Assembly: GCF_046119375.1 (NCBI RefSeq)
Contig: NW_027362774.1
Location: forward strand, 27,838,001-27,902,000
Reading direction: 5' to 3'
Length of the DNA: 64,000 bases
Source of the DNA: Phyllobates terribilis
Lineage: Eukaryota
The notes beneath the pieces are model-generated. The model made no database searches, was not told the DNA's origin, and was given only the letters and a program-made list of their open reading frames with translations. Positions 1-36,689 of this stretch are shown one piece after another (position 1 is the stretch's first letter; every line of letters starts with the position of its first letter). Both the position numbers and the translations under genes were made by a program.

Positions 1-3000
1 TCGGGTTCGGTTCGGTTCGTCGAACACCGGGATGTTCGAGGAACTGTTCGTCGAACTGTTCGTCGAACACCTTAGAACACCGTTAAAACCAATGGCAGGC
101 AAACAAAAACACATAGAAACACATAGAAAACACCTGCAAAGGTGTCCAAAAGCTGAAAAACTGCTCAGAAGACACTCTCTTTAAAAAAGCCGGCCGGCAA
201 ATTCAGCAGCGGCATACACCGGTACCCGACAATTTAGACAAGAAGGAATAGAGCATCACACATAGATTAGATAGATAGAAACATGTCAGTCACATATATA
301 TGAAGTACAGTGACAGTGTTGGTTACTGCACTTGTCATTTAGTGTAAAGGATTTATTAAAAAAAATATTAGTGTTTTCATGCACCGTCTCTTTAAAAAAG
401 CCGGCCGGCAATTCAGCAGCGGTACCCGACAATTTATAACAGAAAGAATAGAGCTTCACACATAGATTAGATAGATAGAAACATGTCAGTCACATATATA
501 TGAAGTACAGTGACAGTGTTGGTTACTGCACTTGTCATTTAGTGTAAAGGATTTATTTAAAAAAATAATAGTGTTTTCATGCACCGTCTCTTTAAAAAAG
601 CCGGCCGGCAATTCAGCATCTGTACCCGACAATTTAGATCAGAAAGATAGAGCATCACACATAGATTAGATAGATAGAAACATGTCAGTCACATTTATAA
701 TAAGTACAGTGACAGTGTTGGTTACTGTACTTGTCATTTAGTGTTAAAATAAAGGATTTATTAAAATAAAAATTGGCGTGGGATCCCCCATAATTTTAGG
801 CTCTAGCGGAGGTTAAGCAGACAGCTGGGGCAGATGTTTGAAGCCTCGGAAGGGGGTAATACCCACGGAGCTTACCAGGCTACTAATATCAGCCCCCAGC
901 TGAATACTTAGCCTTTACTAGCTATTAAAAAGGGGGACCCCCCCAAAAAAATGACGTGGGGTCCCCCCTATTTTAATAGCTAGCAAAGGCTAAGCAGACA
1001 GCTGGGGGCTGATATTAATAGCCCAGGAAGGGTGCCATGAATATTGGCCTCCTCCCAGGCTAGAAACACCAGCCGTCAGCCGCCCCAGAAATGGCGCATT
1101 CATAGGATGCGCCAATTCTGGCACTTAGCCTCGCTCTTCCCACTGCCCTGTAGCGGTGGCAGTGGGGTAATAGGGTTGGGGTTGATGTCAGCTTATAATG
1201 CCAGCTGACATCAAGCCCAGGTTAGTAATGGAGAGGCGTCTATAAGACACCCCCATTACTAACCCCATAGTCAAAGTTAAAAAAAACACAAACACCCAGA
1301 ATAAAGTCCTTTAATTGAAATAAACACACAATTCTTTATTGTTCTAAATTAAACCATACTTACCGTCACGCCCATTCCAGCTGAAGCCAACGATCTCCTG
1401 TAATAAAAGAAAAATAATAAAGCAACATCATCCTTACCTTTCCATGGTTCCCAGGACAGCTTCAGCTCTGCTACATCGAGATGACTGGCTGGACTGCAGC
1501 AGAACGCCGCCATCCAGCCTGTCATCCCGCAGACACTGAGAAGCGCAGGCATGCTTGCGCTCCTCACTGTCTCGCTGTGACGGCATCCAGATGAGCCGAG
1601 GTCATGTCCAATGAACTCGGCTCACCTCATGCACGTCACTGACAGCGTGGGAAAATTCTCACGCTGAAGCGCTGAGTGCAGGAGAATTCTCCCACGCTGT
1701 CAGTGACGTGCAGGAGGTGAGCTGAGTTCATTGGACATGAGCTCACCTTATGCACGTCACTGACAGCGTGGGAAAATTCTCCTGCACTCAGCGCTTCAGC
1801 GTGGGAGAATTCTCACACTGAAGCGCTGAGTGCAGGAGAATTCTCCCACGCTGTCAGTGACGTGCAGGAGGTGAGCTGAGTTCATTGGACATGAGCTCAC
1901 CTTATGCACGTCACTGACAGCGTGGGAAAATTCTCCTGCACTCAGCGCTTCAGCGTGGGAGAATTCTCACGCTGAAGCGCTGAGTGCAGGAGAATTCTCC
2001 CACGCTGTCAGTGACGTGCAGGAGGTGAGCTGAGTTCATTGGACATGAGCTCACCTTATGCACGTCACTGACAGCGTGGGAGAATTCTCCTGCACTCACC
2101 GCTTCAGCGTGAGAATTTTCCCACGCTGTCAGTGACGTGCATGAGGTGAGCCGAGTTCATTGGACATGAACTCGGCTCATCTGGATGTCGTCACAGAGAG
2201 ACGCTGAGCAGCGCAAGCAAGCCTGCGCTTCTCAGTGTCTGCGGGATGACAGGCTGGATGGCAGCGTTCTGCTGCGGTCCAGCCTGTCATCTCGATGTAG
2301 CAGAGCTGAAGCTGTCGTGGGAACCATGGAAAGGTAAGGATGAGGTTGCTTTATTATTTTTCTTTTATTGCAGGAGATCGTTGGCTTCAGCTGGAATGGG
2401 CGTGACGGTAAGTATGGTTTAATTTAGAACAATAAAGGATTGTGTCTTTATTTCAATTAAAGGACTTTATTCTGGGTGTTTGTGTTTTTTTTAACTTTGA
2501 CTATGGGGTTAGTAATGGGGGTGTCTTATAGACGCCTCTCCATTACTAACCTGGGCTTGATGTCAGCTGGCATTATAAGCTGACATCAACCCCAACCCTA
2601 TTACCCCCTGCCACCGCACCAGGGCAGCGTGGAAGAGCGAGGCTAAGTGCCAGAATTGGCGCATCCTATGAATGCGCCATTTCTGGGGCGGCTGACGGCT
2701 GGTGTTTCTAGCCTGGGAGGGGGCCAATATTCATGGCTCCCTTCCTGGGCTATTAATATCAGCCCCCAGCTGTCTGCCTAGCCTTTGCTAGCTATTAAAT
2801 TAGGGGGGACCCCACGTCATTTTTTTGGGGGGTCCCCCATTTTAATAGCTAGTAAAGGCTATGTATTCAGCTGGGGGCTGATATTAGTAGCCTGGGAAGC
2901 TCCGTGGGTATTACCCCCTTCCCAGGCTTCAAACATCTGCCCCAGCCGTCTGCTTAACCTCCGCTAGAGCCTAAAATTAAGGGGAACCCCACGCCAATTT

Positions 3001-3871
3001 TTTTAATAATAAATCCTTTATTTTAATACTAAATGACAAGTACAGTAACCAACACTATCACTGTACTTCATATATATGTGACTGACATGTTTCTATCTAT
3101 CTAATCTATGTGTGAAGCTCTATTCTGTCTGTTATAAATTGTCGGGTACCGCTGCTGAATTGCCGGCCGGCTTTCTTAAAGAGACGGTGCATGAAAACTC
3201 TATTATTTTTTTTAATAAATCCTTTACACTAAATGACAAGTACAGTAATCAACACTGTCACTGTACTTCATATATATGTGACTGACATGTTTCTATCTAT
3301 CTAATCTATGTGTGAAGCTCTATTCTGTCTGTTATAAATTGTCGGGTACCGCTGCTGAATTGCCGGCCGGCTTTTTTAAAGAGACAGTGCATGAAAACAC
3401 AATTATTTTTTTTGATAAATCCTTTACGCTAAATGACAAGTACAGTAAGCAGCACTTTCACTGTACTTCGTATATATGTGACTGACATGTTTATATCTAT
3501 CTAATCTATGTGTGAAGCTCTATTCTTTCGGTTCTAAATTGTCGGGTACAGGTGTATGCCGCTGCTGAATTGCCGGCTTTTCATGTTTCACTGTGAGCAC
3601 AGTTCCCATCGATTTGGGCAATCACTGTAATGCCACAACCACCATGGCTGTGGCATTACAGTGAGTGGCAGACAATCCCTGCATGATTGGTGCTCTAAAT
3701 AGCGCCAGACATGCAGGACACGCTTTTGGTGCACGAACAGTTATCGAACATAACCTCGAACAGCCGAATTTTTTGCAAATCGTTCGGGTTCGTCGAACAA
3801 CTCGAACACCGCCCAAAACAGCTCGAATTTGAGATTGGCGAACAGTTCTAGTCGAACACCGCTCATCTCTA
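1..3871. mobile_element. Non-autonomous hAT-like/foldback element, left end outside the window, with a ~3.4-kb internal palindrome
   Basis: Right end ...GCTCATCTCTA (3861-3871; reverse complement TAGAGATGAGC, a hAT-like terminus as recalled); GTTCG/CGAAC-rich subterminal repeats at 1-70 and 3735-3860; arms ~177-1590 and ~2185-3590 are reverse complements, each with three ~190-200-bp tandem units; central nested palindromic repeats 1590-2185; no transposase ORF. Confidence 0.7.
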
Positions 3872-5276
3872 CTAATGACATCAACACCCTATATAAGGTG
3901 TGCTTAATTATTAGGCAACTTCCTTTCCTTTGGCAAAATGGGTCAGAAGAGAGATTTGACGGGCTCTGAAAAGTCCAAAATTGTGAGATGTCTTGCAGAG
4001 GGAGGCAGCAGTCTTGAAATTTCCAAACTTTTGAAGCGTGATCACCGAACAATAAAGCGTTTCATGGCAAATAGCCAACAGGGTCGCAAGAAGCGTGTTG
4101 GCCAAAACAGGCGCAAAATAACTGCCCATGAATTGAGGAAAATCAAGTGTGAAACTGCCAAGATGCCATTCGCCACCAGTTTTACCATATTTCAGAGCTG
4201 CAACATTACTGGAGTATCAAAAAGCACAAGGTGTGTGATACTCAGGGACATGGCCAAGGTAAGGAAGGCTGAAAAACCACCACCTTTGAACAAGAAACAT
4301 AAGATAAAACGTCAAGAATGGGCCAAGAAATATCTTAAGACTGATTTTTCAAAGGTTTTATGGACTGATGAAATGAGAGTGACTCTTGATGGGCCAGATG
4401 GATGGGCCAGAGGCTGGATCAGTAAAGGGCAGAGAGCTCCACTCCGACTCAGACGCCAGCAAGGTGGAGGTGGGGTACTGGTATGGGCTAGTATCATCAA
4501 AGATGAACTTGTGGGACCTTTTCGGGTTGAGGATGGAGTGAAGTTCAACTCCCAGACCTACTGCCAGTTTCTGGAAGACAACTTCTTCAAGCAGTGGTAC
4601 AGGAAGAAGTCGGTATCGTTCAAGAAAAACATGATTTTCATGCAGGACAATGCTCCATCACATGCATCCAACTACTCCACAACGTGGCTGGCCAGTAAAG
4701 GTCTAAAAGAAGAAAAAATAATGACATGGCCCCCTTGTTCACCTGATCTGAACCCCATAGAGAATCTGTGGTCCATCATAAAATGTGAGATCTACAGGGA
4801 GGGAAAACAGTACACCTCTGGGAACAGTGTCTGGGAGGCTGTGGTGGCTGCTGCACGCAATGTTGATCGAAAACAGATCAAGCAACTGACAGAATCTATG
4901 GATGGAGGCTGCTGAGTGTCATCGTAAAGAAAGGTGGCTATATTCATCACTAATTTTTTTGGTTTTTGCATGTCAGAAATGTTTATTTCTATATTTTGTG
5001 CACTGATATTGGTTTACCTGGTGAAAATAAACAAGTGAGATGGGATTATATTTGTTTTTTTATTAAGTTGCCTAATAATTCTGCACAGTAATAGTTACCT
5101 GCACAAACAGATATCCTCCTAAGATAGCCAAATCTAAAAAAAAAACCACTCCAACTTCCAAAAATATTAACCTTGGATATTTATGAGTCTTTTGGGTTGA
5201 TTGAGAACATAGTTGTTGATCAATAATAAAAATAATCCTCTAAAATACAACTTGCCTAATAATTCTGCACACAGTG
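3872..5276 (+). mobile_element. Tc1/mariner DD37E (TRT-like) transposon, left end missing at the junction with the foldback element
   Basis: Transposase ORF 3938-4915 (WTDE...QDNAPSH...DLNPIE; 37 residues between second D and E), frameshifted near the C-terminus (SMDGGC*); right TIR ...aataattctgcacacagtg followed by TA (5277-5278). Confidence 0.92.
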
Positions 5277-6197
5277 TATATATACACACATACACACGAG
5301 TAGATATTAAAAGTAACTGCGTCGTCCTTATCTGTCAATTACACTTCCAAAAGGGGTTGTCATCCAGCTTTCCTGAGCCCTGGAAAGCTGGATGACTTTA
5401 TTTTTTCATTGTAATATTTTTGCAAAAAAAAAAAAAACACAGCAAAAAGGGGCAGCAATGTTTACCTGCCCAGGTCTCAGAGCTAATGCACTACCAGGAT
5501 GCAGCAAACCAATTTAATAAAGATGGCGGCAGCACAGGTGCAAAATACTGATGAGACAACCACTCACAACCTACCAGTTCATAGAGGGGGTGATTGCTTA
5601 GTATTCAAAAATTGCACACAAATAAGGCTTGTATAGGGCGCTGTTCACACATGGATAGTGAACAGTATCTGGCTTACCCGTCAATTAGTGACGCCCATGC
5701 TATTAGATTAGGCGGGCTGCCCGGTACTATCCAAGTGCACCCCATGAGGACAGACACCCTAGTTTACAATGCCAACACTGATGGGCCTGGCTGCACCCTG
5801 GAATAAAAAAGTGCAAAAAGTCATAAGTTACTTACCGGTAGCGGGATTTTTCGGAGACCATGACAGCACCACGAGAGAGGGGATCCGCCCACCAAGGACA
5901 GGAAACGTAGAGGGTTAAAAGGGGCGGCCCTCTCTCTCGCCTCAGTTTGGATTACAGAGCATTGAGAGGACCACCAGGTTAGTAGACATGGTAAACAATC
6001 ATAAAAATAATATTTTTATACAACACCACTAAGTGAGAAAATAATAATTAATAACTGAGGAGTGCTCCCATAAAGTGAAGGGACTTAATATAAGGGTGCT
6101 GTCATGGTCTCCGAAAAATCCCATTACCGGTAAGTAACTTATGACTTTATCGGTTGACCATGACAGCACCACGAGAGAATTGCAGAGATGAAGAAGT

Positions 6198-7313
6198 TTA
6201 GGGAGGGACCAAAGCCTGGAGCACCCTTCTTCCAAATGTGAGGTCAGATGAAACACCCAAATCCAGTCTATAGTGCCTATAGAAGGTAGATGGAGAAGAC
6301 CAGGTAGCAGCCTTACATATGTCTTCCATCGAGACACCCGTCTTCTTCGCCCACGAGGTTGCCACTGCCCGGGTATTGTGAGCCTTCAACCCCTGTGGAG
6401 CTTCCTCCCCGCTGGAGACATAAGCTACAGTAATAGCCTCCCTGATCCACCTAGCTATGGTGGACTTAGCAACCCTAAGCCCTTTTCTAACCCCTTGGTA
6501 GGAGATAAACAAGGAACTATCTTTCCGGAAAACCTGGGTGACCGATAGGTACTTAATCACACATCTTCTAACATCTAAGGTATGGAACTCTGCCTCTTTG
6601 TGGTTACTTGGATTAGGACAGAACGAGGGTAGGAGTATTTCTTGGAGTCTATGGAAACGGGAAGCTACTTTAGGGAGATATGCTGGGTCAGTTTTAAGAA
6701 TTATTCTATTGTCCAGGATCTGAGTGAAAGGTGGGGCTGAAGACAGAGCCTGGATGTCACTAACCCTTCTAGCTGATGTTAGAGCTATTAGAAGCGCTGT
6801 TTTAAGGGAGATGGACTTAAGGGATGCTGAATCCATTGGTTCGAAGGGTGAACCAGTTAATGCTTTTAGAACTAAATTTAGACCCCAGGGTGCTAAATTG
6901 CTTTTGATAACAGGCCTGGATCTAAACACAGCTTTGATAAAGCGAGAAATCCAATAATTTCCTGCCAGGTCACAGTTATATAGGGCACCTAAGGCGGAGA
7001 CTTGGACTTTAAGGGTGCTTGTTGCCAACCCCAACTCGAGGCCTTTCTGTAAAAATTCTAAAATTTTACCAATTGGCGCTCCCTCACCAACTGTAGAACC
7101 AGAGAAAGATAAAAAAAAATTCCAAGTTCTAGCGTAAATCCTGGTAGTGACAGGTTTCCTACTACGCATTAGTGTAGTCACTAGATCTCGGGCGAATCCT
7201 TTGCGTTCTAACAGGGACCTCTCAAGTTCCACACCGTAAAGTGGAGGCCGGGAGCTTGAGGATGGAGTATCGGACCCTGGCTGAGGAGATCTGGGATTTC
7301 GGGTAGGACCCAA
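6198..7313 (-). CDS. DIRS tyrosine recombinase (uninterrupted ORF, 371 aa)
   Basis: SARRV(R)...KAHNTR(H-x-x-R)...ATWSS...FYRHY(Y) catalytic set. Confidence 0.9.
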   Translation of the reverse strand: MGPTRNPRSPQPGSDTPSSSSRPPLYGVELERSLLERKGFARDLVTTLMRSRKPVTTRIYARTWNFFLSFSGSTVGEGAPIGKILEFLQKGLELGLATSTLKVQVSALGALYNCDLAGNYWISRFIKAVFRSRPVIKSNLAPWGLNLVLKALTGSPFEPMDSASLKSISLKTALLIALTSARRVSDIQALSSAPPFTQILDNRIILKTDPAYLPKVASRFHRLQEILLPSFCPNPSNHKEAEFHTLDVRRCVIKYLSVTQVFRKDSSLFISYQGVRKGLRVAKSTIARWIREAITVAYVSSGEEAPQGLKAHNTRAVATSWAKKTGVSMEDICKAATWSSPSTFYRHYRLDLGVSSDLTFGRRVLQALVPP

Positions 7314-9018
7314 GGATCAGAGATGGACATGTTCCTCAGGCATGAGAACCAGGGTCTCCTGGGCCAAAAGGGGGCGATCAGGAGGACCCTCGCCTTGTCC
7401 TCTCTGATCTTTCTTAGAACCATGGGAAGGAGATTCAATGGTGGAAAGGCGTACGCCAGACTGAAATTCCAAGTTATTTGGAGAGCGTCTACTGCCAGGG
7501 GGTTTTCTCTGGGATTTAGGGAGCAAAAGAGCTTTGTCTTTTGATTTAGCCTTGTGGCAAAGAGATCTACCACCGGAAGACCCCATTTTCGGACTATTTG
7601 GGAAAAAATATCCTGCTTTAGTTCCCATTTGCCCTGCCTCAGAGAAAAACGGCTTAAGTAGTCTGCTTTTACGTTTTCTTTTCCTTTGATATAGAGGGCC
7701 GTTAAGGAAAGGAGATGACATTCCGAAATCTGAAAAAGATGATCCGTCACTTTCACCAGTGATCCAGCACATGTACCCCCCTGATGGTTCATGTAAGCTA
7801 CAGCTATCCTATTATCTGAAAGGATTTTAACATTCTTATCATGAAGGAAAGGCAAGAAATGATTAATCGCCTTATCCACTGCTAGCAGTTCCTTAGTGTT
7901 GGAGGAAAGACTTTTTTCAGCGTCTGACCAGGACCCCTGGGCAACCCTATCCCCCAGATGAGCCCCCATCCATGGAAGCTTGCATCGGTTGTAATTATTT
8001 TAGTGACTCTAAACACCCAGGGAACACCTCGTGACAGGTTCACCCTCCACTGCAAGGACTCAACAGATCGGGGAGACAAGGACATTCGTCCTTCTAAGTG
8101 CCCATTTAACAAAACCTCATTATGTAGAACGTCCCATTGTAGAACCCTGGAGTGGTATTGTGCCCACAGAACCCCAGGAAGGCAAGATGACAGGGTACCC
8201 AACAAGGACATCACAGCTCTAAGGGACATGACCGGGTTTGATAATGCTTTCTCTACTAGAATTTTAACCTTTTGTTTTTTGGCTTCCGGGAGGAAACATA
8301 TTTGAAGGTCTGAATCCAGCATGATACCCAAGAACTGTTGTACTTTTGAAGGCACAACCCTGGACTTCTCTAGATTTAGGATCCAACCCAGACTTTCCAA
8401 GATGGAGGATACTAATTAAAGATGATTTTCACATTGGAAGGTTGAGTCTCCAACTATCAAGAAATCATCCAGGTAAGGGATAATCAAAATATTATGTTGG
8501 CTATGGCCAGACCGAACGGTAAGGCTCTAAACTGGAAATGTTTAATTTCGTCATCTATGATCAAAGCTACCCTAAGGTATTTCTGGAAGTCCATATGTAT
8601 AGGTACATGGTAATAGGCGTCTTTTAGGTCTAACACTACCGTGTAACAGCCTGAAAAAAAGTAACTTTATTGTAGATTTAATGGATTCCATCTTAAAGGT
8701 GGGAACTAACAAAAATGTATTAAGGGCTTTAAGGTTAATGATGCACCTAAAAGACCCGTCAGGCTTAGAAACCAAAAAGAGAGGCGAGTAGAATCCTAGT
8801 CCCCTTTCTGCTGTCGGGACTTCTACTAGAACCGCTTTATGGACCAAGTTCAGGACTTCCACTTGTAGGGCCGTTTGCTCTAATGCTGAGGAACGGTTTG
8901 GGGTCAAGATGAATCTCCCACGAGGAATCTGCAGAAACTCGAACCTCAGACCGGAACCTACCAGATCAAGGATCCAGTTACTAGAAGAAATTTTTGTCCA
9001 GGCAGGTAAGAAGCCCAA
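7208..9018 (-). pseudogene. DIRS reverse transcriptase / RNase H / methyltransferase-like ORF, broken by frameshifts
   Basis: Split across ORFs 8572-9018, an unlisted YLDD-containing frame near 8460-8480, 7882-8400 and 7208-7969. Confidence 0.88.
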
Positions 9019-9156
9019 CAGCCTCCCCCCTACCTGGGCTGCGAGTCATTGACTTGGTTTCCGGGGGCCTTGGTTAGAAGAAGAAGAGCCGAATAGGAGC
9101 CCTCTACCTCTCGGTCTGCGGTCTTCCCATTTCTCCTGACCCTTCTGTGGTCTTTT

Positions 9157-10641
9157 TCATAGAAACCGTCTCCTATGGAAAGGACGTTTGTAAGTGGGGA
9201 TAGACAAGCTAGGGAAACCTTTCTTTTTGTCACTAGCTTTATCCAGAAGTTCGTCCAGAACAGGCCCAAAAAGATGCTCTCTTTCACATGGAATAGTATA
9301 GAGTCTCGTTCTTGCTTGAATGTCACCTGGCCAACATTTCAGCCACAAGACTCTATGGGCTGAGTTGGACATGGCGACTGACCTCGCTGCCAATCTGACT
9401 GAATCCGCAGAGGCATCTGCCAGGAAGGCTGCTGCCCCCTGTAGGAGTGACATATCTGATAAAATCTCCTTCCTGGGGGTGTTATTTCTCAGATGGGATT
9501 CAAGTTGGTCCAGCCATATCATTAGGGACCTGGCGGTACAAGTAGCGGCAACCGCTGGTTTTACGGCCCCCGCAGATGTTTCCCAGGTCCCTTTGAGAAA
9601 AGTGTCAGCTTTCCTATCCAAAGGGTCCTTAAGAGCCCCCATATCATCAAAGGGGAGAGAGGATCGTTTAGATGCCTTAGCTATAGCCACATCTATTCTG
9701 GGGTCTTTCTCCCAGGACGAAGAAGCTGAGTCTTCAAAGGAATATTTTCTTTTAAAGAACAGAGGAAGAATACCCTTTCTCTCTGGCCTTTTCCATTCTC
9801 TACGTATCAAGCCCTGAATTTTATCGTTAAAGGGAAAACTTCTTCTTTTCCTCTGCCCCAGCCCCCTGAACATAATATCCTGGACTAATTTTTCCGGTCT
9901 GGCATCTGTAATACCCATGGTTGACCGAATTGCTTTAATTAAACCATCGACACCATTAATGGGAAAACCATTCTGACACGCACCACTATCTGAGGAAGTA
10001 GATGATGAAGAGGCTGCGTCGTCTGAGTCCAATTCATAAGCCGACGACAGGGAGTCATCAGGGGCTGGGGAGATCTCACGGTCTGTATCCACCTTTCCTT
10101 TAGTTTTTTTTGGCGAGGATTTTACTGGTTTCAGACTTGACCAAGGTTCTTAATCCCGAGGTGAGGCTAGGGGTCTCCTCTGCCAGCATTTGATTTATAC
10201 AGGACTGACACAATTTTTTGGGATATGAGTTGGGAAGGATGGAGTTACATAATGCACACTGAATATGCCTGGTCTTGGAGGTACACTTCTTCCCCTATTA
10301 AAATTAGAAGGGGAGAAGGGATACTCCATTACTAAGTGAACTTTCTCAAAGATCACTTACCCAGGTGGCTCAAAAAAGGCTAGTACCGATTTGGAGGAAG
10401 GACCCTTCTCAGCCGGGGGATCATCCCAGGAGGCTGCAGATTCGTCCATCCTGCTGGAGCCGTGATGACTGGACTTAGACACCGAACCTCTTTTTCCTGA
10501 GGACCGGGCATTACCAGAAACATGAGGGCGATGCACTTTTTGAGGCTCCCCAAACAGCCGCTGAGATAGTGGAGATGGCGGCTGCTCAACTTGCTGCTGC
10601 AGTAGCTGCTGCTGCTGTTGCTGCTCATTATCGGACTCCAT
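9157..10641 (-). pseudogene. DIRS gag-like ORF1, fragmented
   Basis: ORF 9157-10092 (…DPLDRKAD…LWLKCW…KKKGFP) and upstream fragment 10357-10641 with a CAG/poly-Q run; position 5' of RT inside the ITRs. Confidence 0.75.
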
Positions 10642-12179
10642 GATGAGGAGAACAAGCTGGGAAGCCCTGAACAGTGGTGCTTGGGCCAGTTAAGTAGCAC
10701 CTGTTCCACCCCTCAGCCACCTGATTTCAATTGAATACATTTCCCCATTTTCTTTTTTTTTTTTTTTACACAGGGATGCTTGGCGCCCCATCGCTGCGGT
10801 TAATACCGCACTTACAATTAGGTGCAGGTGACCGGACTTCCGGGTCTCGGTCACGTGATCGCCCCGAGGTGCGGTGACGTCATCGGGCCACGACTTACAG
10901 GAGGAGGCCGGAAGTGCGCGCCCGCACGAGCCTCGCGCCGGGAAGCTCCAGTTGCCGCCGCTCCAGGTAGGCTCTGCCAAGATCCATGAGCCTGCTACCC
11001 GGATTGGGGCGCAGCGTCGGATATCCAGTGCGCCAACCTCCGCTGGGTGTCGATGGGGACGGCATCCCACGCAACCCGTCTGTCTTCAGGGCGATGGTGG
11101 GCTCTGCCACCCAAGATAGGGGCGCAGTCCCACTGCAGTCCGGATCAGACCAGGGGCAGACTCCTCCACAGAAAGGGGCGCAAACCTGGCTGAAGCAGCT
11201 GATGAAAGGGCTGCCACCCCAGATAGGGGCGCTGCCTCCTGCTTATCCGGTGCAAAATATGCTGTGCCACTCCCAGATAGGGGTGCACCCACAAAGCAGA
11301 CGCTGGAGCTACAGATCCCAGATATGGGCGCTGCTCGACAGCCGTCGCCATCCGGTTCTTTCCACGAGCCTGAAATAGGTTCCCTCCATCAAGGACAGGA
11401 AACCAAAACTGAGGCGAGTGAGAGGGCCTCCCCTTTTCAGCCTGTAGGTTTCCTGTCCTTGGTGGGAGGATCCTCTCTCTCGTGGTGCTGTCATGGTCGA
11501 CCGATAAAATACATATAGCATATATGAAGTATTGGTCAAAATACGCCAGCTCGCAACCCGCGTCAAGGGTCCTCATACTTGCAAGTACGATCACCAAACT
11601 AAAAGCAAAGCCACAATAAATAAATATTTTTGCAACTAGCGAGTGGCTTCCAAGGGGGAAGCTGCCCCCATAAAATTTCACATTACTTCTTTTACTTCAG
11701 TTTCCAAACCCTAAAATGGTTAAAAGTGACCTGTTGATTCTTCTTCTGACCTGATCATTCAGTGGGAAGATGGCACAAACTAAATAAAGAAATCTATGGG
11801 GAGCCCAAAAAGACAGACTGAATACACCTGGTGTCTTTTCTAGAATTTTAAAAATGCCACACAAAAAAAAAAGCGGGTGTTTCCTGAAGCGGGTTCACCT
11901 GACTTCAAGACTATGTGCACACGTCGAGTATTTGGTTGCAGTAAGTTGTGAAAGGTTTCTGCCTCTCTTGGCAGCAAAAACGCTGAAGAAAAAACACACT
12001 TTTTTATGCGTTTTTATACAGCAATGAATGCTTTTTGGAGCTAAATAAAAATATTTGAAAAAAGAAATGTGGGACATCGCTTTAACCTTGGATTACCGTC
12101 GGACCTAGGGTGAGTATATTGGGTTAATTTAAATGCTTAAAGAATGTGTCTGTTGTATTTCAAATAAAGTGTTTTATTC

Positions 12180-13240
12180 TGTGTGTGTGTGTGTTTATTT
12201 AACTCTTTTCTTACAGGTTTAGTAATGAGGGTGTCTGGTTGAACCTAAGGGTTGGTGTCAGCAACACCTAATCCCATTACCCCTTTTCTCCTAATGCCAT
12301 TCAAATATGAAGTGTCATTTCAGGGGCAGCTGAGGGCTGCTATTTTTAGTATAGGAAAGGGCCATTAGGCCAACATGCTCCCTGGCTGTTTGGTTAGCCT
12401 TTAGGCTACGTCCCTACGATTAGCAACCAGCTGTGCTTTGGATAATACGACGCCCCCATTACTAACCCCATAGTTTAAATAAACTAAGTTTTAAATATAC
12501 ACACGGCCTTAAAAAAATCTTTAACTTGAAATAAAAGTCCACACGGTTTTAATAATTTATTTAAAAATAAAAAACACAGTATACTCACCTAACTCCTAAT
12601 CTGCTGAAGCCATTGTCACCTGTAAAACAAAATAACAAACAACCATATCCCTCACCGGTCCAATGTGGTGACGTAATCCAGAGTGTCCCATAAAGATCTG
12701 GGTCAGTTCTAGAGCAGTCACATCAATCACTGATGTGACTGTTGTAGAGGACAGCAGGCTACACACTGACACAGGAGTGTAATCTCTCCTGTATCTGTAT
12801 AGCGCTGAGCTGCCGAGAGAGAGGTCACATGAGTTCATCAGCCAATGATCAGCTTATGAGCTCCGGTGACTTCACTTTCTGCACCGCTGCTTGAGAATTT
12901 TCTCACGCAGGATCAGTGCAGTAAGTGAGGTCATCGGAGCTCATCAGCTGATGAACTCATGTAACCTCTGCACTATACAATGCTGGGAGCGATCACATTC
13001 CTGTCAGTAATGCTGGGTGATCAGATCGCCATGGGACACTCGGGATTTCGGCAGATAGGTGAGCATATGGTGTTTTTTATTTTAACATTCATTTAATTTT
13101 AACTTTTTTTCACTGCGAACACAGATGCAGGCTGATGACAGCTCCCATCAGCGGCACCTGCTCAATATCATCAGCGGCAGCAGTCATATGCTGATGGGAG
13201 GAGTAGTCTCTCATAAGCCGACGCCTGTCACAATTCTTTG
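12180..13240. mobile_element. Palindromic MITE-like element (second copy ~17650-18740)
   Basis: Internal inverted repeats (e.g. gatcagcttatgagctccggtgacttcacttt vs agtgaggtcatcggagctcatcagctg); shares cccccattactaacccc motif with the element at 1-3871. Confidence 0.55.
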
Positions 13241-13767
13241 TGCATTTTTGACCCATTGACTTCAAGTGAGTCAGTCGAAAATTTTCAGCAAATACGCAAA
13301 TATTTTTATACCTGCGTTTTTGGATTTGACTGACTCAATTGAAGTCAATGGGTGAAAAACACGGCAAAACGCACAAAGAATTGACATGCTGCAGATTTAA
13401 ACGCAATGCAAACCCTAAGGGTATGTGCACACGGTGCGGATTTGCTGCGGTTTTGATGCTGCGTTTTTATGCAGCGTCAAAACCGCAGCAGCCAGATGTT
13501 ACAGCATAGTGGATGGGATTTCTAGAAATCCCATGTCCACTATGCGTCTTTGTGCACCTGCGGATCACCTGTGGAAACTGACATGAGGTGCGTTTTTCAG
13601 ATCCGCAGCATGTCTATTTCTCTTGCAGAAGCGCATGCGGATTTTCCCCATAGACTTGCATTAGATGAGGAAAATCCGCATGCGTAAAAACTGCATGTGT
13701 GTTTTGTGTGCGTTTAAACAGCGGAAACGCATACAAAAATGCTACGTGATGATCAATAAAGTTTTTT

Positions 13768-14235
13768 CTCTACGACATATGTTTATTTCCTTTGTGTGTA
13801 TTGGAACAACACAAAAACACAGAGAAAAAAGATAAATTGGACATAATTTTACAAAACCACAAAAATGGGCTGTACAAAATTTTTGGCACCTTTCCAAAAT
13901 TGTGAGTAAACAAATTTGTTTCAAGCATGTGATACTCGTTCAGGCTCACCCATGGCAAGTAACAGGTGTGGGCAATATGAAAATCACACCTGAAACAATC
14001 TTTGCATTGTGTGTCTGTGTGTGCAACACTAAGCATGGAGAACAGAAAGAGGAGAAGAGAACTGTCTGAGGACCAAAACTGTTGAGAAATAACAACAATC
14101 TCAAGGTTGCAAGTTCATCTCCAGAGATATCCAGTGTCAGAAAGCAGGATTTGCATCTTACATCATGGGTCTTCCAGCAGGACAATGACCCCAAACATGC
14201 TTCAAGAAGCTCCCAGAAATGGATGGAACAATTTC
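13768..14235 (+). pseudogene. Heavily deleted Tc1 remnant
   Basis: VFQQDNDPKHASRSSQKWM peptide at ~14165-14225 and Tc1-like upstream sequence. Confidence 0.7.
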
Positions 14236-14799
14236 AAGGGCGCCAACACTTTGGGCCATGACTGCATATACAGTATGCTGAATACACAGACCATACGGCT
14301 AAGATTATGTGCCCAAAGCCTTGAGGATGCAATTCAGATTGGGCCCGATGGAGTTTGTCTGGATGGTACAAGGTAGTCTAGATCCAAACTGGTCATCGTT
14401 CGCTGGGGACAAAAGAAATCTCTCAACTTTTCCAGGGTCTATATGCGGATTCAAGTTTACCACAGACAATTCTGGGGACACTTATCATTGCTTTTGCACA
14501 ATTTGGATGGCTCCGGAGATAGTAGCGAGAAGGCATCTTGCATTTTCAGTCTTCAAGAGAGTCAATGACTTTATTTTTCTGCTATCCAAGGAGACGGCTA
14601 TTGACCCAGAAGGCAAATTCTATGGCTGCTGCTATGCGGTCCTGCAAATGAGGTCCACCCTCCTTCATATCGCCCTTCGAGGACTGGAAATCCCAAGTGG
14701 GAGGGAAAAACCTCTGTTATGATGTAAATGACTTTGCAAGGTAATTCTTCTATCTTGAAGGTCACCATTGAGGTCGTCCAACATTGCCATCTCCGTAAA

Positions 14800-17700
14800 T
14801 ATATATATACACACATGAGTAGATATTAAAAGTCACTGCGTCGTCCTTATCTGTCAATTACACTTCCAAAAGGGGTTGTCATCCAGCTTTCCTGAGCCCT
14901 GGAAAGCCGGATGACTATTTTTTCATTGTAATATTTTTGCAAAAAAAAACACAGCAAAAAGGGGCAGCAATGTTTACCTGCCCAGGTCTCAGAGCTAATG
15001 CACTACCAGGATGCAGCAAACCAATTTAATAAAGATGGCGGCAGCACAGGTGCAAAATACTGATGAAACAACCACTCACAACCTACCAGTTCATAGAGGG
15101 GGTGATTGCTTAGTATTCAAAAATTGTACACAAATAAGGCTTGTATAGGGCGCTGTTCACACATGGATAGTGAACAGTATCTGGCTTACCCGTCAATTAG
15201 TGACGCCCATGCTATTAGATTAGGTGGGCTGCCCGGTACTATCCAAGTGCACCCCATGAAGACAGACACCCTAGTTTACAATGCCAACACTGATGGGCCT
15301 GGCTGCACCCTGGAATAAAAAAGTGCAAAAAATACATACAGTACAGACCAAAAGTTTAGACACACCTTCTCATTTAAAGATTTTTCTGTATTTTCGTGAC
15401 TATGAAAATTGTACATTCACACTGAAGGCATCAAGACTATGAATTACCACATGTGGAATTATATACTTAACAAAAAAGTGTGAAACTACTGAAAATATGT
15501 CTTATATTCTAGGTTCTTCAAAGTAGCCACCTTTTTCTTTGATGACTGGTTTGCACACTCTTGGCATTTTCTTGATGAGCTTCAAGACGTAGTCACCGGA
15601 AATGGTTTTCACTTCACAGGTGTGCCCTGTCAGGTTTAATAAGTGGGATTTCTTGCCTTATAAATGGGGTTGGGACCATCAATTGTGTTGTGCAGAAGTC
15701 CGGTGGATACACAGCTGATAGTCCTACTGAATAGACTGTTAGAATTTGTATTACGGCAAGAAAAAAGGAGATAAGTAAAGAAAAACGAGTGGCCCTCATT
15801 ACTTTAAGAAATGAAGGTCAGTCAGTCTGAAAAATTGGGCAAACTTTGAAGGTGTCCCCAAGTGCAGTTGCAAAAACCATCAAGCGCTACAAAGAAACTG
15901 GCTCACATGAGGACCGCCCCAGGAAAGGAAGACCAAGAGTCACCTCTGCTTCTGAGGATAAGTTTATCCGAGTCACCAGCCTCAGAAATCGCAGGTTAAC
16001 AGCAGCTCAGATTAGAGACCAGGTCAATGCCACACAGAGTTCTAGCAGCAGACACATCTCTAAAACAACTGTTAAGAGGAGACTTTGTGCAGCAGGCCTT
16101 CATGGTAAAATAGCTGCTAGGAAACCACTGCTAAGGACAGGCAACAAGCAGAAGAGACTTGTTTGGGCTAAAGAACACAAGGAATGGACATTAGACCAGT
16201 GGAAATCTGTGCTTTGGTCTGATGAGTCCAAATTTGAGATCTTTGGTTCCAACCATCGTGTCTTTGTGCGACGCAGAAAAGGTGAACGGATGGACTCTAC
16301 ATGCCTGGTTCCCACCGTGAAGCATGGAGGAGGAGGTGTGATGGTGTGGGGGTGCTTTGCTGGTGACACTGTTGGGGATTTATTCAAAATTGAAGGCATA
16401 CTGAACCAGCATGGCTACCACAGCATCTTGCAGCGGCATGCTATTCCATCCGGTCTGCGTTTAGTTGGACCATCATTTCTTTTTCAACAGGACAATGACC
16501 CCAAACACACCTCCAGGCTGTGTAAGGGCTATTTGACCAAGAAGGAGAGTGATGGGGTGCTACGCCAGATGACCTGGCCTCCACAGTCACCAGACCTGAA
16601 CCCAATCGAGATGGTTTGGGGTGAGCTGGACCACAGAGTGAAGGCAAAAGGGCCAACAAGTGCTAAGCATCTCTGGGAACTCCTTCAAGATTGTTGGAAG
16701 ACCATTTCCGGTGACTACCTCTTGAAGCTCATCAAGAGAATGCCAAGATTGTGCAAAGCAGTCATCAAAGCAAAAGGTGGCTACTTTGAAGAACCTAGAA
16801 TATAAGACATATTTTCAGTTGTTTCACACTTTTTTGTTAAGTATATAATTCCACATGTGGTAATTCATAGTTTTGATGCCTTCAGTGTGAATGTACAATT
16901 TTCATAGTCATGAAAATACAGAAAAATCTTTAAATGAGAAGGTGTGTCCAAACTTTTGGTCTGTACTGTATAACATATATGAAGTATTGGTCAAAATGCG
17001 CCAGTTCGCAACCCGCGTCAAGGGTCCTCATACTTGCAAGTACGATCACTAAACTAAAAGCAAAGCCACAATAAATAAATATTTTTGCAACTAGCGAGTG
17101 GCTTCCAAGGTGGAAGCTGCCCCCATAAAATTTCACATTACTTCTTTTACTTCAGTTTCCAAACCCTAAAATGGTTAAAAGTGACCTGTTGATTCTTCTT
17201 CTGACCTGATCATTCAGTGGGAAGATGCCACAAACTAAATAAAGAAATCTATAGGGAGCCCAAAAAGACAGACTGAATACACCTGGCGTCTTTTCTAGAA
17301 TTTTAAAAATGCCACACAAAAAAAACGCGGGTGATTCCTGAAGCGGGTTCACCTGACTTCAAGGCTATGTGCACACGTCGAGTATTTGGTTGCAGTAAGT
17401 TGTGAAAAGTTTCTGTCTCTCTTGGCAGCAAAAACGCTGAAGAAAAAACACACTTCTTTATGCGTTTTTATACAGCAATGAATGCTTTTTGGAGCTAAAT
17501 AATGATATTTGAAAAAAGAAATGTGGGACATCGCTTTAACCCTTGGATTACCGTCGGACCTAGGGTGAGTATATTGGGTTAATTTAAATGCTTAAAGAAT
17601 GTGTCTGTTGTATTTAAATAAAGTGTTTTATTGTGTGTGTGTGTGTGTTTATTTAACTCTTTACTTACAGGTTTAGTAATGAGGGTGTCTGGTTGAACCT

Positions 17701-19263
17701 AAGGCTTGGTGTCAGCAACATCTAATCCCATTACGATGAAAAAAAGAATGGACCGCACCTCCAAAAACATACGTTGCCTCTCGGCAAAAATATATAAAAC
17801 TGAACATGAGGTTCTTAGTTTAACATCCTGATCAGACTGTATGAAGCCCACTGCCAAGTCACGGCAAACCTCATAGTGGGTCCTAACATTTCCTGCCTGA
17901 AAGGGAGCGGAGCCGTGCGCCAACCACCACCGCTGCGACAATGCATCAGCAGGGCGGGCGGCCTGGTGCCTCACAGCACCCATGCTGTAAGGCCGAGTCC
18001 CCATGACTCCAGGCCACGCTGCCCCACAAGCACGAAACTATAGCAACAATGGCCGACACACTGCACCAACACCACATGAAATGAGCATTGTGACTCACCT
18101 TCCTCAAGCTCTCAATTATAATAATTTTTTTACAAATAAAAAACACAGTATACTCACCTAACTCCTAATCTTCTGAAGCCATTGTCACCTGTAAAAAAAA
18201 ATAAAAAACAACCATATCCCTCACCGGTCCAATGTGGTGACGTAATCCAGATGTGACTGTTGTAGAGGACAGCAGGCTACATAATGACACAGGAGTGTAA
18301 TCTCTCCTGTGTCTGTATAGCGCTGAGCTGCCGAGAGAGAGGTCACATGACTTCATCAGCTAATGATCAGCTTATGAGCTCCGGTGACCTCACTTTCTGC
18401 ACCGCTGCTTGTGAATTTTCTCACGCAGGATCAGTGCAGTAAGTGAGGTCATCGGAGCTCATCAGCTGCACTATACAACCCTGCACTATACAATGCTGGG
18501 AGCGATCACATTCCTGTCAGTGATGCTGGGTGATCGGATCGCCATGGGACACTCGGGATTACGGCGGATAGGTGAGTATATGGTGTTTTTTATTTTAACA
18601 TTCATTTAATTTTAACTTTTTTTCACTGCGAGCACAGATGCAGGCGGATGACAGCTCCCATCAGCGGCACCTGCTCACTATCATCAGCAGCAGCAGTCAT
18701 ATGCTGATGGGAGGAGTAGTCTCTTATAAGCCGAAGCCTGTCACAATTCTTTGTGCATTTTTGACCCATTGACTTCAAGGGAGTCAGTCAAAAATTTGCA
18801 GCAAATACGCAAATATTTTTATACCTGCGTTTTTGCTGCGGATTTAACTGACTCAATTGAAGTCAATGGGTGAAAAACGCGGCAAAACGCACAAAGAATT
18901 GACATGCTGCAGATTTAAACGCAATGCAAACCCTAAGGGTATGTGCACACGGTGCGGATTTGCTGCTGCGTTTTTATGCAGCGTCAAAACCGCAGCGGCC
19001 AGATGTTACAGCATAGTGGATGGGATTTCTAGAAATCCCATGTCCACTATGCGTCTTTGTGCACCTGCGGATCACCTGTGGAAACTGACATGAAGCGCGT
19101 TTTTCAGATCCGCAGCATGTCTATTTCTCTTGCAGAAGCTCATGCGGATTTTCCCCATAGACTTGCATTAGATGAGGATGCGTAAAAACTGCATGTGTGC
19201 TTTGTGTGAGTTTCCGCAGCGGAAACGCATACAAAAACACTACGTGATGATCAATAAAGTTTG
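14800..19263. repeat. Segmental tandem duplication, copy 2 (segment A, DD38E insertion, segment B)
   Basis: Near-identical to copy 1 apart from substitutions, a ~40-bp deletion near 18250 and a non-matching block (~17715-18120 vs ~12255-12540). Confidence 0.9.
15339..16968 (+). mobile_element. Tc1-related DD38E (Intruder-like) transposon, full length (1630 bp), decayed start
   Basis: TA duplication on both sides; ~200-bp TIRs CAGTACAGACCAAAAGTTT...; transposase ORF 15846-16805 (WSDE...QDNDPKH...DLNPIE, 38-residue spacing) ending inside the right TIR; upstream ACG in place of the expected ATG and an in-frame TGA near 15828. Confidence 0.94.
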
Positions 19264-19599
19264 TTTAAAAAAACCTATTCTCTAATTTCAACATGATGAC
19301 ATGAAAAACGCATGCGGCAAAATCGCATCAAAAAATGCATGTGGCAAAACCGCATGTAAAAACCGCAACTAACCTAATTTGCATATTAGGTGTGGAAATG
19401 GTGCAGAAATTCTGCAGCGTCAAAACCGCAGCAAATCCGCACCGTGTGCACATACTCGAACGGGAAAATTCCTGATCATGTGCACAGCACTTCCACTTCA
19501 GGATTGTCCGTGCATTAGCTGGCACAAGGATTCCCTAGCGTTTTTCAATAATTTCTGAGCAGAAAAAACGCACCAAAAATGCACCGTGTGCACATACCC
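18937..19599. mobile_element. PIF/Harbinger-type MITE (truncated paralog from 13419; related ends at ~11908, ~17362, ~21911)
   Basis: Ends GGGTATGTGCACAC...GTGTGCACATACCC preceded by TAA; internal palindromes; superfamily assignment from terminal sequence only. Confidence 0.55.
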
Positions 19600-27900: not shown

Positions 27901-30900
27901 GAAATGGTCCTGTGCTATGAGCGCCGACCACTAGGTGGCGCTCATAGCGACAAGATCATGACAACCACAGGCGTCTGCTGCAGACCCTGGGTTGTCATGC
28001 CCACCCATCGGCGACCTGCGATCACGTGACGGGGTCGCCGGTGGGCGGGGCTTATGACGCGCTACCCGGAAGCGCGCGTTAAATGTTGCTGTCAGAGATT
28101 AACAGCGGCATTTAACATGTTAACAGCCGCGGGTGGATCGTGATTCCACCCGCGGCTGTTGCGGGCACATGTCAGCTGTAAGAATCAGCTGACATGTGCT
28201 CCGTTCAGTGAGGGCTCAGCGCAGCAGCCCTCACTGAACGGAGGGTACGCAAATGTGCGTACTAATACGTCCCCGGTATTTAAGGGGTTAAAATTGAGTC
28301 TATTTTAGTGGTATTATAGGATTTATGTATTTTATAATTCATATAGGTCATATTAGTGTTAAGTGATAAAATTGTTGAGACAGTGAAAGGCTTAAAATTG
28401 TACCCCCAGCTCAAAGCGATGATATATCAATAGGACATGCCATCACCTTACAAATGGTGACGGTCCAACCTTCATTAAAGCTGTGCTGTGGTTCCCCTGA
28501 ATTGATGTACCGACGGTGGTTCGGGTGCTGCGCTCCATGTACCAACGGTGGTTCGGGTGCTGCGCTCCATGTACCGACGGTGGTTCGGGTGCTGCGCTCC
28601 ATGTACCGACGGTGGTTCGGGTGCTGCGCTCCATGTACCGACGGTGGTTCGGGTGCTGCGCTCCATGTACTGACGGTGGTTTGGGTGCTGCGCTCCATGT
28701 ACCGACGGTGGTTCGGGTGCTGCGCTCCATGTCCCGACGGTGGTTCGGGTGCTGCGCTCCATGTCCTGACGGTGGTTCGGGTGCTGCGCTCCATGTACTG
28801 ACGGTGGTTCGGGTGCTGCGCTCCATGTACTGACGGTGGTTCGGGTGCTGCGCTCCATGTACTGACGGTGGTTCGGGTGCTGCGCTCCATGTACTGACGG
28901 TGGTTCGGGTGCTGCGCTCCATGTACTGACGGTGGTTCGGGTGCTGCGCTCCATGTACTGACGGTGGTTCGGGTGCTGCGCTCCATGTCCTGACGGTAGT
29001 TCGGGTGCTGCGCGTCATGTACAGACGGTGGTTTCACTTTTTACTGTATTTAATTGTCCCCTTAGGAGTCTTGAAGCTGTGATCGTTTGATTGTCTGTGC
29101 TATTCATAGTAGGGCTTCAGCACTGCTATGTATCGCAAAAACTCAAAATTATGTTCTCCTTTGAGGCAGTGTTCACAGTTGATTCACCATGACAGGCATG
29201 GGGGTCTTCTGCAGATCCCCGGCTGTCATCACAACCCATCGGCGCCCCCAGATCACGTGACAGTTGCGCCGATGGGCGGTATTTGTGACGTGCTTCCAGA
29301 CGGCACGTGTTAAATCCCGCTGTCAGAGATTGACAGCGGGATTTAACCGTTTAACAGCCGCAGACGGAGCTGCAGTATTTTGGATGTTTTCCTATCCGTA
29401 GGAGGTGCTGCTGATGATGGAGGTCCCTGACGTTTGGACTCTCGGAGCAGTCAATCAATGAAATCGACGGTACAATTCTCACCGCACAAATCAGAAAATA
29501 ATAATGCTGCAAAATCAGAAGAAAGTTCAGCGTCTTGCACTCACCGTTCCTCTCCTGATAAGCGGACAGGATGTTGATCAGATCGTAAGAACTTGCGAAT
29601 GGGCTCGTTCCATTGATAACAGAAACCTGCCACGTGGAATCAGAAAAAAAAACAACCAACCATCGTTACTATTCCTGCTCTGTAATCCCCACATCTGGCC
29701 CCCAATCCGCCTCATTTCCATATGTCCAAAACAGACACAGCTCCGCTACGTCCCCCGACTGTAGTGTCTTACGTTGTAGGTGGTGTCCAGGCCCTGGTGT
29801 CTCAGAGGTCGTCTCTGCTGAAGCCTCAGGTCTCCATTGATGTAAAGCTTGGCTCCGGGAACAGGAGACGTATACTGGACGAACGCCATGCTCTGCATAG
29901 CAAATGTGGACATCCTCTGCAGGAATCGCCAAATACAGAAATATATTACATCCCCCATCATCTCATGAAAGTGACCAGAAAATATACTTACAGTATTGAC
30001 TATAACTCTTCTCCCGTTTTATGTATACAGCTCTCCTACAGACCAATGTGTCTGCATGGTTACAGACGGACAAGCCAAGCCCGTGTGGGAGCTAAACTGG
30101 CATTAATTCATTCCTCTTCTCACTGATCTACTGATGACTGCACCGTCAGACTACAAATAGGGCTTGTTTGTAGTCTGTCACCATGGAGACGCATAGAGGT
30201 GTTGGGAAAAAAAAAGGTGAGAGAAAAGCGTCTTGCTAGAGACAGGTAAAATTAGAATTATTTAATGTCCCTTACAAGATCTAGATCCCAAAGCATTATA
30301 AACGCAATATGAATAAAAATAAAATACTTCTACTCACCTCACAGCCCATCTCTCTAACTCATACATGAAAGACTGTGGCCCACAAGGTGGTTGGTTATAT
30401 TTGGCCCGCGAAACCAGAACCCTGCCACCCCTATGTGGGCCCACTATACTGTGTTGAGGACTATGTGGGGCCCATTACACTGTATGGAGGACTATGTGGG
30501 ACCATTATACTGTATGGAGGACTATGTGGGCCCACTATACTGTATGGAGGACTATGTGGGGCCCATTATACTGTATGGAGGACTATGTGGGGCCCATTAT
30601 ACTGTATGGAGGACTATGTGGGGCCCACTATACTGTAAGGAGGACTATGTGGGCCCACTATACTGTATGGAGGACTATGTGGGGCCCATTACACTGTATG
30701 GAGGACTATGTGGGGCCATTATACTGTATGGAGGACTATGTGAGGCCATTATACTGTATGGAGGACTATGTGGGCCCATTATACTGTATGGAGGACTATG
30801 TGGGCCCATTATACTGTATGGAGGACTATGTGGGGCCCACTATACTGTATGGAGGACTATGTGAGGCCATTATACTGTATGGAGGACTATGTGGGCCCAT

Positions 30901-36425: not shown

Positions 36426-36689
36426 GGTGGAGATGTCGGGGGTCCGCACCTCATCAGGGTTTATTCTTTAGTGTCTGGACCCTCTTCATGTGTTTTGCAT
36501 AGATCCCCCTGTATAAAAATCTGATTAGAAATAGGGCAATGAGGATAGTCGCCCCCACAACTACAGCATATGGGGGTCTCATACTGAACTGGGCACCGAC
36601 CTCTGTATAACAACCTCCTAATCTCGTACCTCATCATGTGCACGTCTACTCTCCATATACACAGGAGGGGGTATGGAAATACCTGTATA

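Follow-up and report, generated by a model that had tools for sequence, protein, structure and literature searches.

We propose that two transposable elements lying almost side by side in a duplicated segment of the Phyllobates terribilis genome, a DIRS retroelement (5817-11508) in copy 1 and a Tc1 transposon of the DD38E/Intruder type (15339-16968; Tc1-a) in copy 2, inserted independently of each other, probably once a local tandem duplication had taken place, with the Tc1 element following a recurrent target preference and the DIRS element entering the adjoining A-run once, most likely by chance. We assign this explanation a probability of about 0.78. The window, i.e. the entire stretch of 64,000 nucleotides analysed (C14:27838001-27902000 within the 10.6-Gb assembly), was taken together with 60 kb upstream and 40 kb downstream (164 kb), and positions refer to the window. 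The pair was revealed by comparing the window with itself, and five bases separate the AAA core of the DIRS element from the target TA of Tc1-a.

The end anatomy agrees with the first-pass annotation, which had described two different transposons about 5 bp apart in two copies of a duplicated segment. In copy 1, five A (5815-5819) are followed by the DIRS element, four A (11506-11509) and then TACATATAGC. With the AAA common to both sides counted once, 5 + 4 - 3 gives six A, equal to the run at 15327-15332 of copy 2, and the annotation's placing of the element in this A-run by the same sum is correct. In copy 2, a TA (15337-15338) precedes Tc1-a, which reads CAGT...ACTG, and a second TA (16969-16970) follows it. 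The earlier identification as a DD38E transposon at this TA is confirmed, with 38 residues between the second D and the E of the transposase. The DIRS insertion fits a 3-bp crossover without target duplication, restoring the six A when compared to copy 2. A target-site duplication (TSD) was considered for this element and rejected, as the A count fits the crossover.

The DIRS element possesses inverted terminal repeats (ITRs; 5847-5948 versus 11508-11406, 89% identical) and an internal complementary region (ICR) at 6095-6178, where 6095-6148 matches the left end and 6146-6178 the right end, the TTT of the circular junction (6146-6148) being common to both ICRs. LAP2alpha is matched above the Pfam cut-off (E 1.9e-9), RT_RNaseH (E 7.8e-5) and Phage_integrase (E 0.009) both fall below the Pfam cut-offs, and the reverse transcriptase is split across frames with a visible YLDD motif. 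No Pfam match to a methyltransferase domain was obtained for 7317-7808 at E up to 1. At least 1,150 right ends of this family match exactly genome-wide, as do 192 internal junctions, and the closest other copy is 95.6% identical. Left ends are preceded by AAA in 27 of 30 copies and by ATA in three; where both ends were found (25 copies of 34 tried), AAA stands on both sides in 22 and an A-run of at least four in 21. The element resembles XtDIRS2 and XtDIRS3 as described in the available passages of PMC3266345, i.e. ITRs, two ICRs overlapping at a 3-bp junction, TTT/AAA termini, no target duplication and a length of ~5.7 kb, and the same passages present DIRS integration as a 3-bp crossover.

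The insertion site, an A-run plus TA tract, is located inside a dispersed repeat of ~545 bp, which has a 13-bp TSD at either border in both copies and extends ~115 bp beyond the site. Window positions 5425-5815 match 38 other loci at 87-90% (among 40 scored of 4,837 candidates), and the site motif is present genome-wide as 188 exact 27-mers and as 342 exact matches to a shorter pattern, with three of the first 30 of the latter not being the host repeat. The usual repeat sequence at the site is the A-run, then TACATATATATA. The shared site hence lies within high-copy sequence, the circumstance that the first-pass annotation had itself named as speaking against a hotspot. As mapped at 41 loci, other copies consist of a ~545-bp monomer in one or two tandem units, often with inverted arms and with TSDs of 11-15 bp. 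We note that the end of the repeat is A-rich and fixed among the copies examined. In monomer size of a few hundred bases, one to two tandem units, inverted arms and 11-15-bp TSDs in several copies, the repeat is similar to the non-long-terminal-repeat (non-LTR) retrozymes and Penelope-derived repeats of the accessible part of bioRxiv 10.64898/2026.07.22.740005, from which it differs in that no hammerhead core was found. Six host-repeat loci yielded no relevant Rfam match for a hammerhead ribozyme, the core pattern in two of 30 loci fell at differing positions and was counted as absent, and the folding z-scores (-1.8 and -2.3) are uninformative. Classification as a retrozyme was rejected, as no hammerhead was found.

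On the Tc1 side, insertion at this tract is recurrent. Tc1-a has terminal inverted repeats (TIRs) of ~272 bp (15339-15610 and 16697-16968, 96% alike), and its transposase frame lacks an ATG start and holds one in-frame stop. Its family has 128,537 exact ends genome-wide, corresponding to ~64,000 copies. In the first 30 ends (22 distinct flanks), an A is found three bases before the TA in 29 and a purine adjoins the TA in all 30. Members lie within 16 bp of the A-run of the repeat at 10 places on six sequences, nine of them outside the window, compared to 0.035 places predicted by uniform insertion, a ~280-fold excess that accords with the A-N-R-TA preference of the family. The identical TA is occupied at five of the 10 places, window included, and all but one of the 10 are among the matches to the 342-site pattern. 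At the nine outside loci the flanks are unrelated, the repeat parts are mostly 88-92% like that of the window (one 39-bp match reaching 97%) and the Tc1 parts are 94-97% alike. Because the flanks are unrelated and the repeat is less alike than the Tc1 parts, these represent separate insertions, and copying of repeat and Tc1 element as one unit was rejected on the same grounds.

Other elements use the tract as well. Among 44 tracts sampled in genome order, six carry a TA-targeting end, i.e. three of the Tc1-a family, one of another Tc1 element and two of a miniature inverted-repeat transposable element (MITE), which we take to be pogo-like; a seventh end (L141), unlabelled in this sample, is probably the far side of an already counted event. 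The upstream flank of the tracts, 40,576 bp, contained none of those three ends and three other Tc1 ends. A TA-CAG-TA footprint is present in one of the 44 tracts. Such footprints were observed in the TA tract of the repeat at L023 and L139 (~1515-1535, motif strand), as left by an earlier Tc1 insertion followed by excision. Spread as it is over six sequences, the Tc1 recurrence follows sequence and not locus: the TA tract acts on Tc1-type elements as a portable magnet encoded in its sequence, and is likely not a shared hotspot.

No such recurrence was detected for the DIRS element. Exact patterns for this one DIRS family, searched genome-wide, recovered the window alone, both for an element at the A-run of the repeat counted from the left end and for a right end directly ahead of T[AG]CATA, whatever the surrounding sequence. 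A search for right ends with TACAG immediately behind them matched 28 times, and the 20 inspected comprised no Tc1-a end and one that resembles another Tc1 end. In a held-out set of 28 DIRS right ends, a Tc1-type end lies within 40 bp at one and a TA-tract-like flank is present at four. The DIRS insertion at this site thus looks like a one-off, made by a family that appears to need little more than AAA. Counting other insertions at homologous sites, as the first-pass annotation had suggested, accordingly upholds its proposed insertion hotspot for Tc1 (10 genomic places plus other TA-targeting elements) and not for DIRS, where the window stands alone against at least 1,150 copies.

Beyond AAA, the DIRS target context shows A or T at +1 and is T-rich from +7 to +11. 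T at +8 occurs in 17 of 25 copies (P 1e-5, position picked after looking) and again in 15 of 28 held-out copies (P 0.002), against a background of 26%, and the window site also has T at +8. This context is absent from the passages on XtDIRS2 and XtDIRS3 available in PMC3266345. Neither the extended context nor a DIRS and a Tc1 element at one site was found reported in a limited literature search of mainly openly accessible papers. It is conceivable, as a long shot, that DIRS recombinases read more than three bases and that a T-rich patch lying roughly one turn of the helix away from the crossover makes junctions of A-run and TA tract good targets, in which case a mobile repeat with such a junction would seed portable landing pads for tyrosine-recombinase and DDE elements genome-wide.

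Three further features of the DIRS family were noted. Copies joined head to tail via their own AAA circular junction occur at L200 and L201 (~1500-1600), and ends abut the end of a sister subfamily at L194 and L203, representing tandem circles or self-targeting. One right end is found with an identical flank 12 times on C17 and small contigs, i.e. an insertion amplified within a larger repeated unit.

The segment that holds both insertions was delineated using blastn of the window against the 60 kb upstream and 40 kb downstream, and measures ~4 kb (3.9-kb unit) in two head-to-tail copies. The duplicated segment reported in the first-pass annotation is upheld, but not its extent, as the unit is longer (Table 1). 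Self-matches join 5276-5819 to 14795-15331 (96.5%) and 11514-13767 to 16969-19265. The copies have diverged by 2.7% (94 of 3,436 aligned bases; 1.2-3.9% by block in the block alignments) and at least three insertions tell them apart (Tc1-a, Tc1-b and DIRS). In the whole assembly, segment 14280-14780 is matched just twice, each time at the window locus, and no N is present anywhere in the 164 kb. The duplication is probably real, as favoured by the anatomy of its junction, which is gap-free and connects non-homologous places through a 3-bp microhomology. Between common flanks, 17735-18115 (380 bp) and 12281-12546 (266 bp) are unrelated, indicating a replacement rather than a simple insertion. 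Two further near-identical pairs upstream were dropped as local duplications; with ends of the TG...CA type, they probably represent LTR pairs.

Alternatively, the two copies may be allelic haplotypes that were put together by the assembler or through genuine exchange between homologues, with the insertion of each allele already in place. We consider this unlikely, even though it fares best among the alternatives. Contigs from four runs and four samples (four of the 10 runs listed) were placed on 13300-15400, a region swamped by repeats, and as contig depths are not copy numbers they were left unused for the duplication question. The contigs of these four other samples differ from copy 2 at up to nine positions in 470-640 bp, compared to 10 in 575 between the copies, so that differences between individuals are about as large as those between copies. 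They mix copy-1 and copy-2 letters with letters of their own, and at copy-2 positions 14291, 14305, 14454, 14462 and 14648 every listed contig covering them has the copy-1 letter. A piece of run X7 that begins at 14795 deviates at seven positions, as many as copy 1 does in that stretch. Haplotypes assembled in tandem, the second reading of the first-pass annotation, hence gain from these comparisons and lose from the junction, as an assembler would presumably need reads to connect, without a gap, non-homologous places with three bases in common. Furthermore, run X6 yields one piece of copy-1 type and another that runs across the empty Tc1-b site, which is what a carrier of both copies, and equally a heterozygote, would show. 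Even were the copies haplotypes, the insertions would still be independent and the explanation through target motifs unchanged.

How improbable is the pair? Motif counts put the chance of one DIRS and one Tc1 element falling within 6-10 bp of each other in the unit at 0.3-0.9%, weight matrices at 0.15-0.36%; for this particular A-run and tract it is 0.07-0.7%. Ranked within the unit by their own weight matrices, the DIRS site is 27th of 302 and the Tc1 site 7th of 207; both are good, not extreme, for their enzymes. The DIRS insertion looks like a coincidence of the order of 1 in 100 to 1 in 1,000 that a large scan has singled out, and an event this rare would presumably turn up somewhere when many windows are scanned in a 10-Gb genome dominated by repeats.

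Several observations weigh against two independent insertions brought together by chance. Per locus, the coincidence remains improbable (0.07-0.9% by method), only 0.003-0.006 DIRS insertions are expected over all 342 sites, and the argument from many looks comes without a count of looks or of duplicated segments. Tract occupancy is 2-3%, a few times above rough consensus-site rates (0.3-1.1% per site). Nine exact Tc1-a ends in the 164 kb, compared to 2.0 expected, point to a regional bias, with a Poisson P of 2e-4 that is overstated because ends come in pairs. A Tc1 half-site (half-match to the consensus) is found no more than 12 bp from the DIRS end in 11 of 25 (P 0.08) and 11 of 28 (P 0.16) copies against a background of 29%, or 22 of 53 pooled (P ~0.03 by hand), suggesting a slight overlap of preference. 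Lastly, none of the 32 contig pieces listed (39,893 further) bridges the duplication junction at 13762, which proves nothing alone.

Part of this evidence would suit a true shared hotspot, where a tyrosine recombinase and a DDE transposase are both attracted to the same few bases because the DNA is bendable or open or breaks there repeatedly: the five-base spacing, with a chance below 1% per pair, the regional excess of Tc1-a, which is accompanied by six full-length DD38E copies in the 164-kb region (C14 27.778-27.942 Mb), several times the genome average, the slight excess of Tc1 half-sites beside DIRS ends, and the favouring by DIRS of T-rich DNA 7-11 bases away, partly supplied by the TA tract. 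If true, two unrelated enzymes would be recognising one property of the DNA or chromatin. The counts for DIRS lend this no support, as no further element of the same family is found where the site is matched exactly or ahead of T[AG]CATA and the held-out right ends rarely have a Tc1-type end or a tract nearby, and the Tc1 recurrence tracks sequence across the genome; we regard a shared hotspot as very unlikely. Linked events, i.e. one element ancestral to both copies and cleanly lost from one (through recombinase reversal in the case of DIRS, or excision with repair in that of Tc1), the second insertion then being promoted by the lesion or by the conversion tract, are the least probable, for although the 3-bp crossover described in the available text of PMC3266345 might in principle be reversed scar-free by the DIRS recombinase and the ages overlap (closest DIRS 95.6%, Tc1-a copies 94-97%, copies 2.7% apart), excision is not needed by any observation at the locus, and Tc1 excision from copy 1 in particular was rejected, as its TA lacks the CAG footprint that other tracts show.

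Two independent insertions would have arisen through the following sequence of events. The ~545-bp retro-type repeat inserted first, generating the 13-bp TSD, and its insertion predates the split of the copies, because both carry it. The ~4-kb segment would then have been duplicated head to tail at the 3-bp microhomology, assuming that the junction exists in vivo. In copy 2, the DD38E transposase placed Tc1-a at the TA of ACA-TA, duplicating the TA, in agreement with the preference of the family. In copy 1, the DIRS recombinase may have crossed the AAA of its circular junction with AAA of the six-A run, as the end anatomy and the mechanism in the available passages of PMC3266345 suggest. The closeness of the two elements would simply reflect two simple motifs that adjoin, combined with the selection of one locus out of very many.

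Tc1-a agrees in DD38E spacing, length (1,630 bp), ~272-bp TIRs and TA duplication with the DD38E/Intruder (IT) family of Tc1/mariner elements, which the available part of PMC7731502 reports in Anura with lengths of 1.5-1.7 kb and TIRs of up to 272 bp; it differs in that this copy is dead and in having ~64,000 copies in the genome. The TA core, the A at -3, the liking for TA repeats and the CAG footprint are shared with the ATATATAT preference of Sleeping Beauty in the accessible passages of PMC8934666 and PMC8151067, although, with 29 of 30 ends carrying the A at -3, the preference looks tighter here than for wild-type SB100X, our sample being natural, aged copies. For Stowaway MITEs in carrot, the available text of PMC6881990 gives parallel insertion at one orthologous position for 292 sites (1.6%). 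Different elements at one position are common for TA-targeting elements, and the window pair is alike in this respect, but in carrot both are mariner-type at the same TA, whereas here two mechanistic classes occupy adjoining, distinct motifs in paralogous copies.

The locus represents a worked example of how apparent cross-class hotspots arise, namely from a repeat in which an A-run adjoins a strong Tc1 target. Where such tracts serve as presence/absence markers, parallel insertion is a risk, one family having entered the identical TA at five places. Comparison of the filled with the empty site confirms the model in which DIRS elements integrate by a 3-bp crossover and leave no scar. The T-rich context, which recurred in held-out copies, adds a modest and testable detail to DIRS target choice.

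Table 1. Duplicated copies, mobile elements and host-repeat parts at the locus (window positions).
Feature	Position	Strand	Remarks
Copy 1	1..13761	+	Begins 1,674 bp left of window; carries Tc1-b and DIRS element
Copy 2	13762..~19262	+	Carries Tc1-a, ~415-bp deletion in old Tc1 fragment, ~380-bp replacement 17735-18115
Duplication junction	13762..13764		TTT common to copy 1 start and copy 2 end; contexts compared side by side
Tc1-b, Tc1-type, copy 1 only	1..5276	+	Left end ~186 bp left of window; at TA; DDE_3 E 1.9e-15 (3908-4915)
Host repeat copy 1, left	5413..5819		Left TSD 5413-5425; ends in A-run
DIRS1-like tyrosine-recombinase retroelement	5817..11508	-	AAA core at both ends, no target duplication; open reading frames broken
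Host repeat copy 1, right	11509..11635		Empty TA tract, monomer remainder, right TSD 11623-11635; continues as in other repeat copies
Host repeat copy 2, left	14930..15338		TSD 14930-14942; intact six-A run 15327-15332; target TA 15337-15338
Tc1-a, DD38E/Intruder-type	15339..16968	+	1,630 bp; TA duplication
Host repeat copy 2, right	16969..17090		Right TSD 17078-17090

The empty site of Tc1-b is found in copy 2 at ~14799. Nested in Tc1-b is a fold-back element of ~3.9 kb (window 1-3872, starting ~20 bp left of the window), with arms at 193-3577 that are 94% alike, internal repeats of ~200 bp and ~154 bp and apparently an 8-bp target duplication. Elsewhere in the window, an open frame at 57763-58446 (- strand) encodes an adenosine-deaminase (editase) domain (Pfam A_deamin, E 5.5e-33) and is an ADAR/ADAT/ADAD-type exon or a retrocopy, and a broken reverse transcriptase of the long interspersed nuclear element (LINE) type lies at 42714-45466 (- strand; RVT_1 E 6.5e-26, zf-RVT weak). 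Minisatellite and satellite arrays are spread across the right half of the window (28505-29033, 30431-33410, 36682-38724, 40457-42266, 47922-49022 and 56093-57069).

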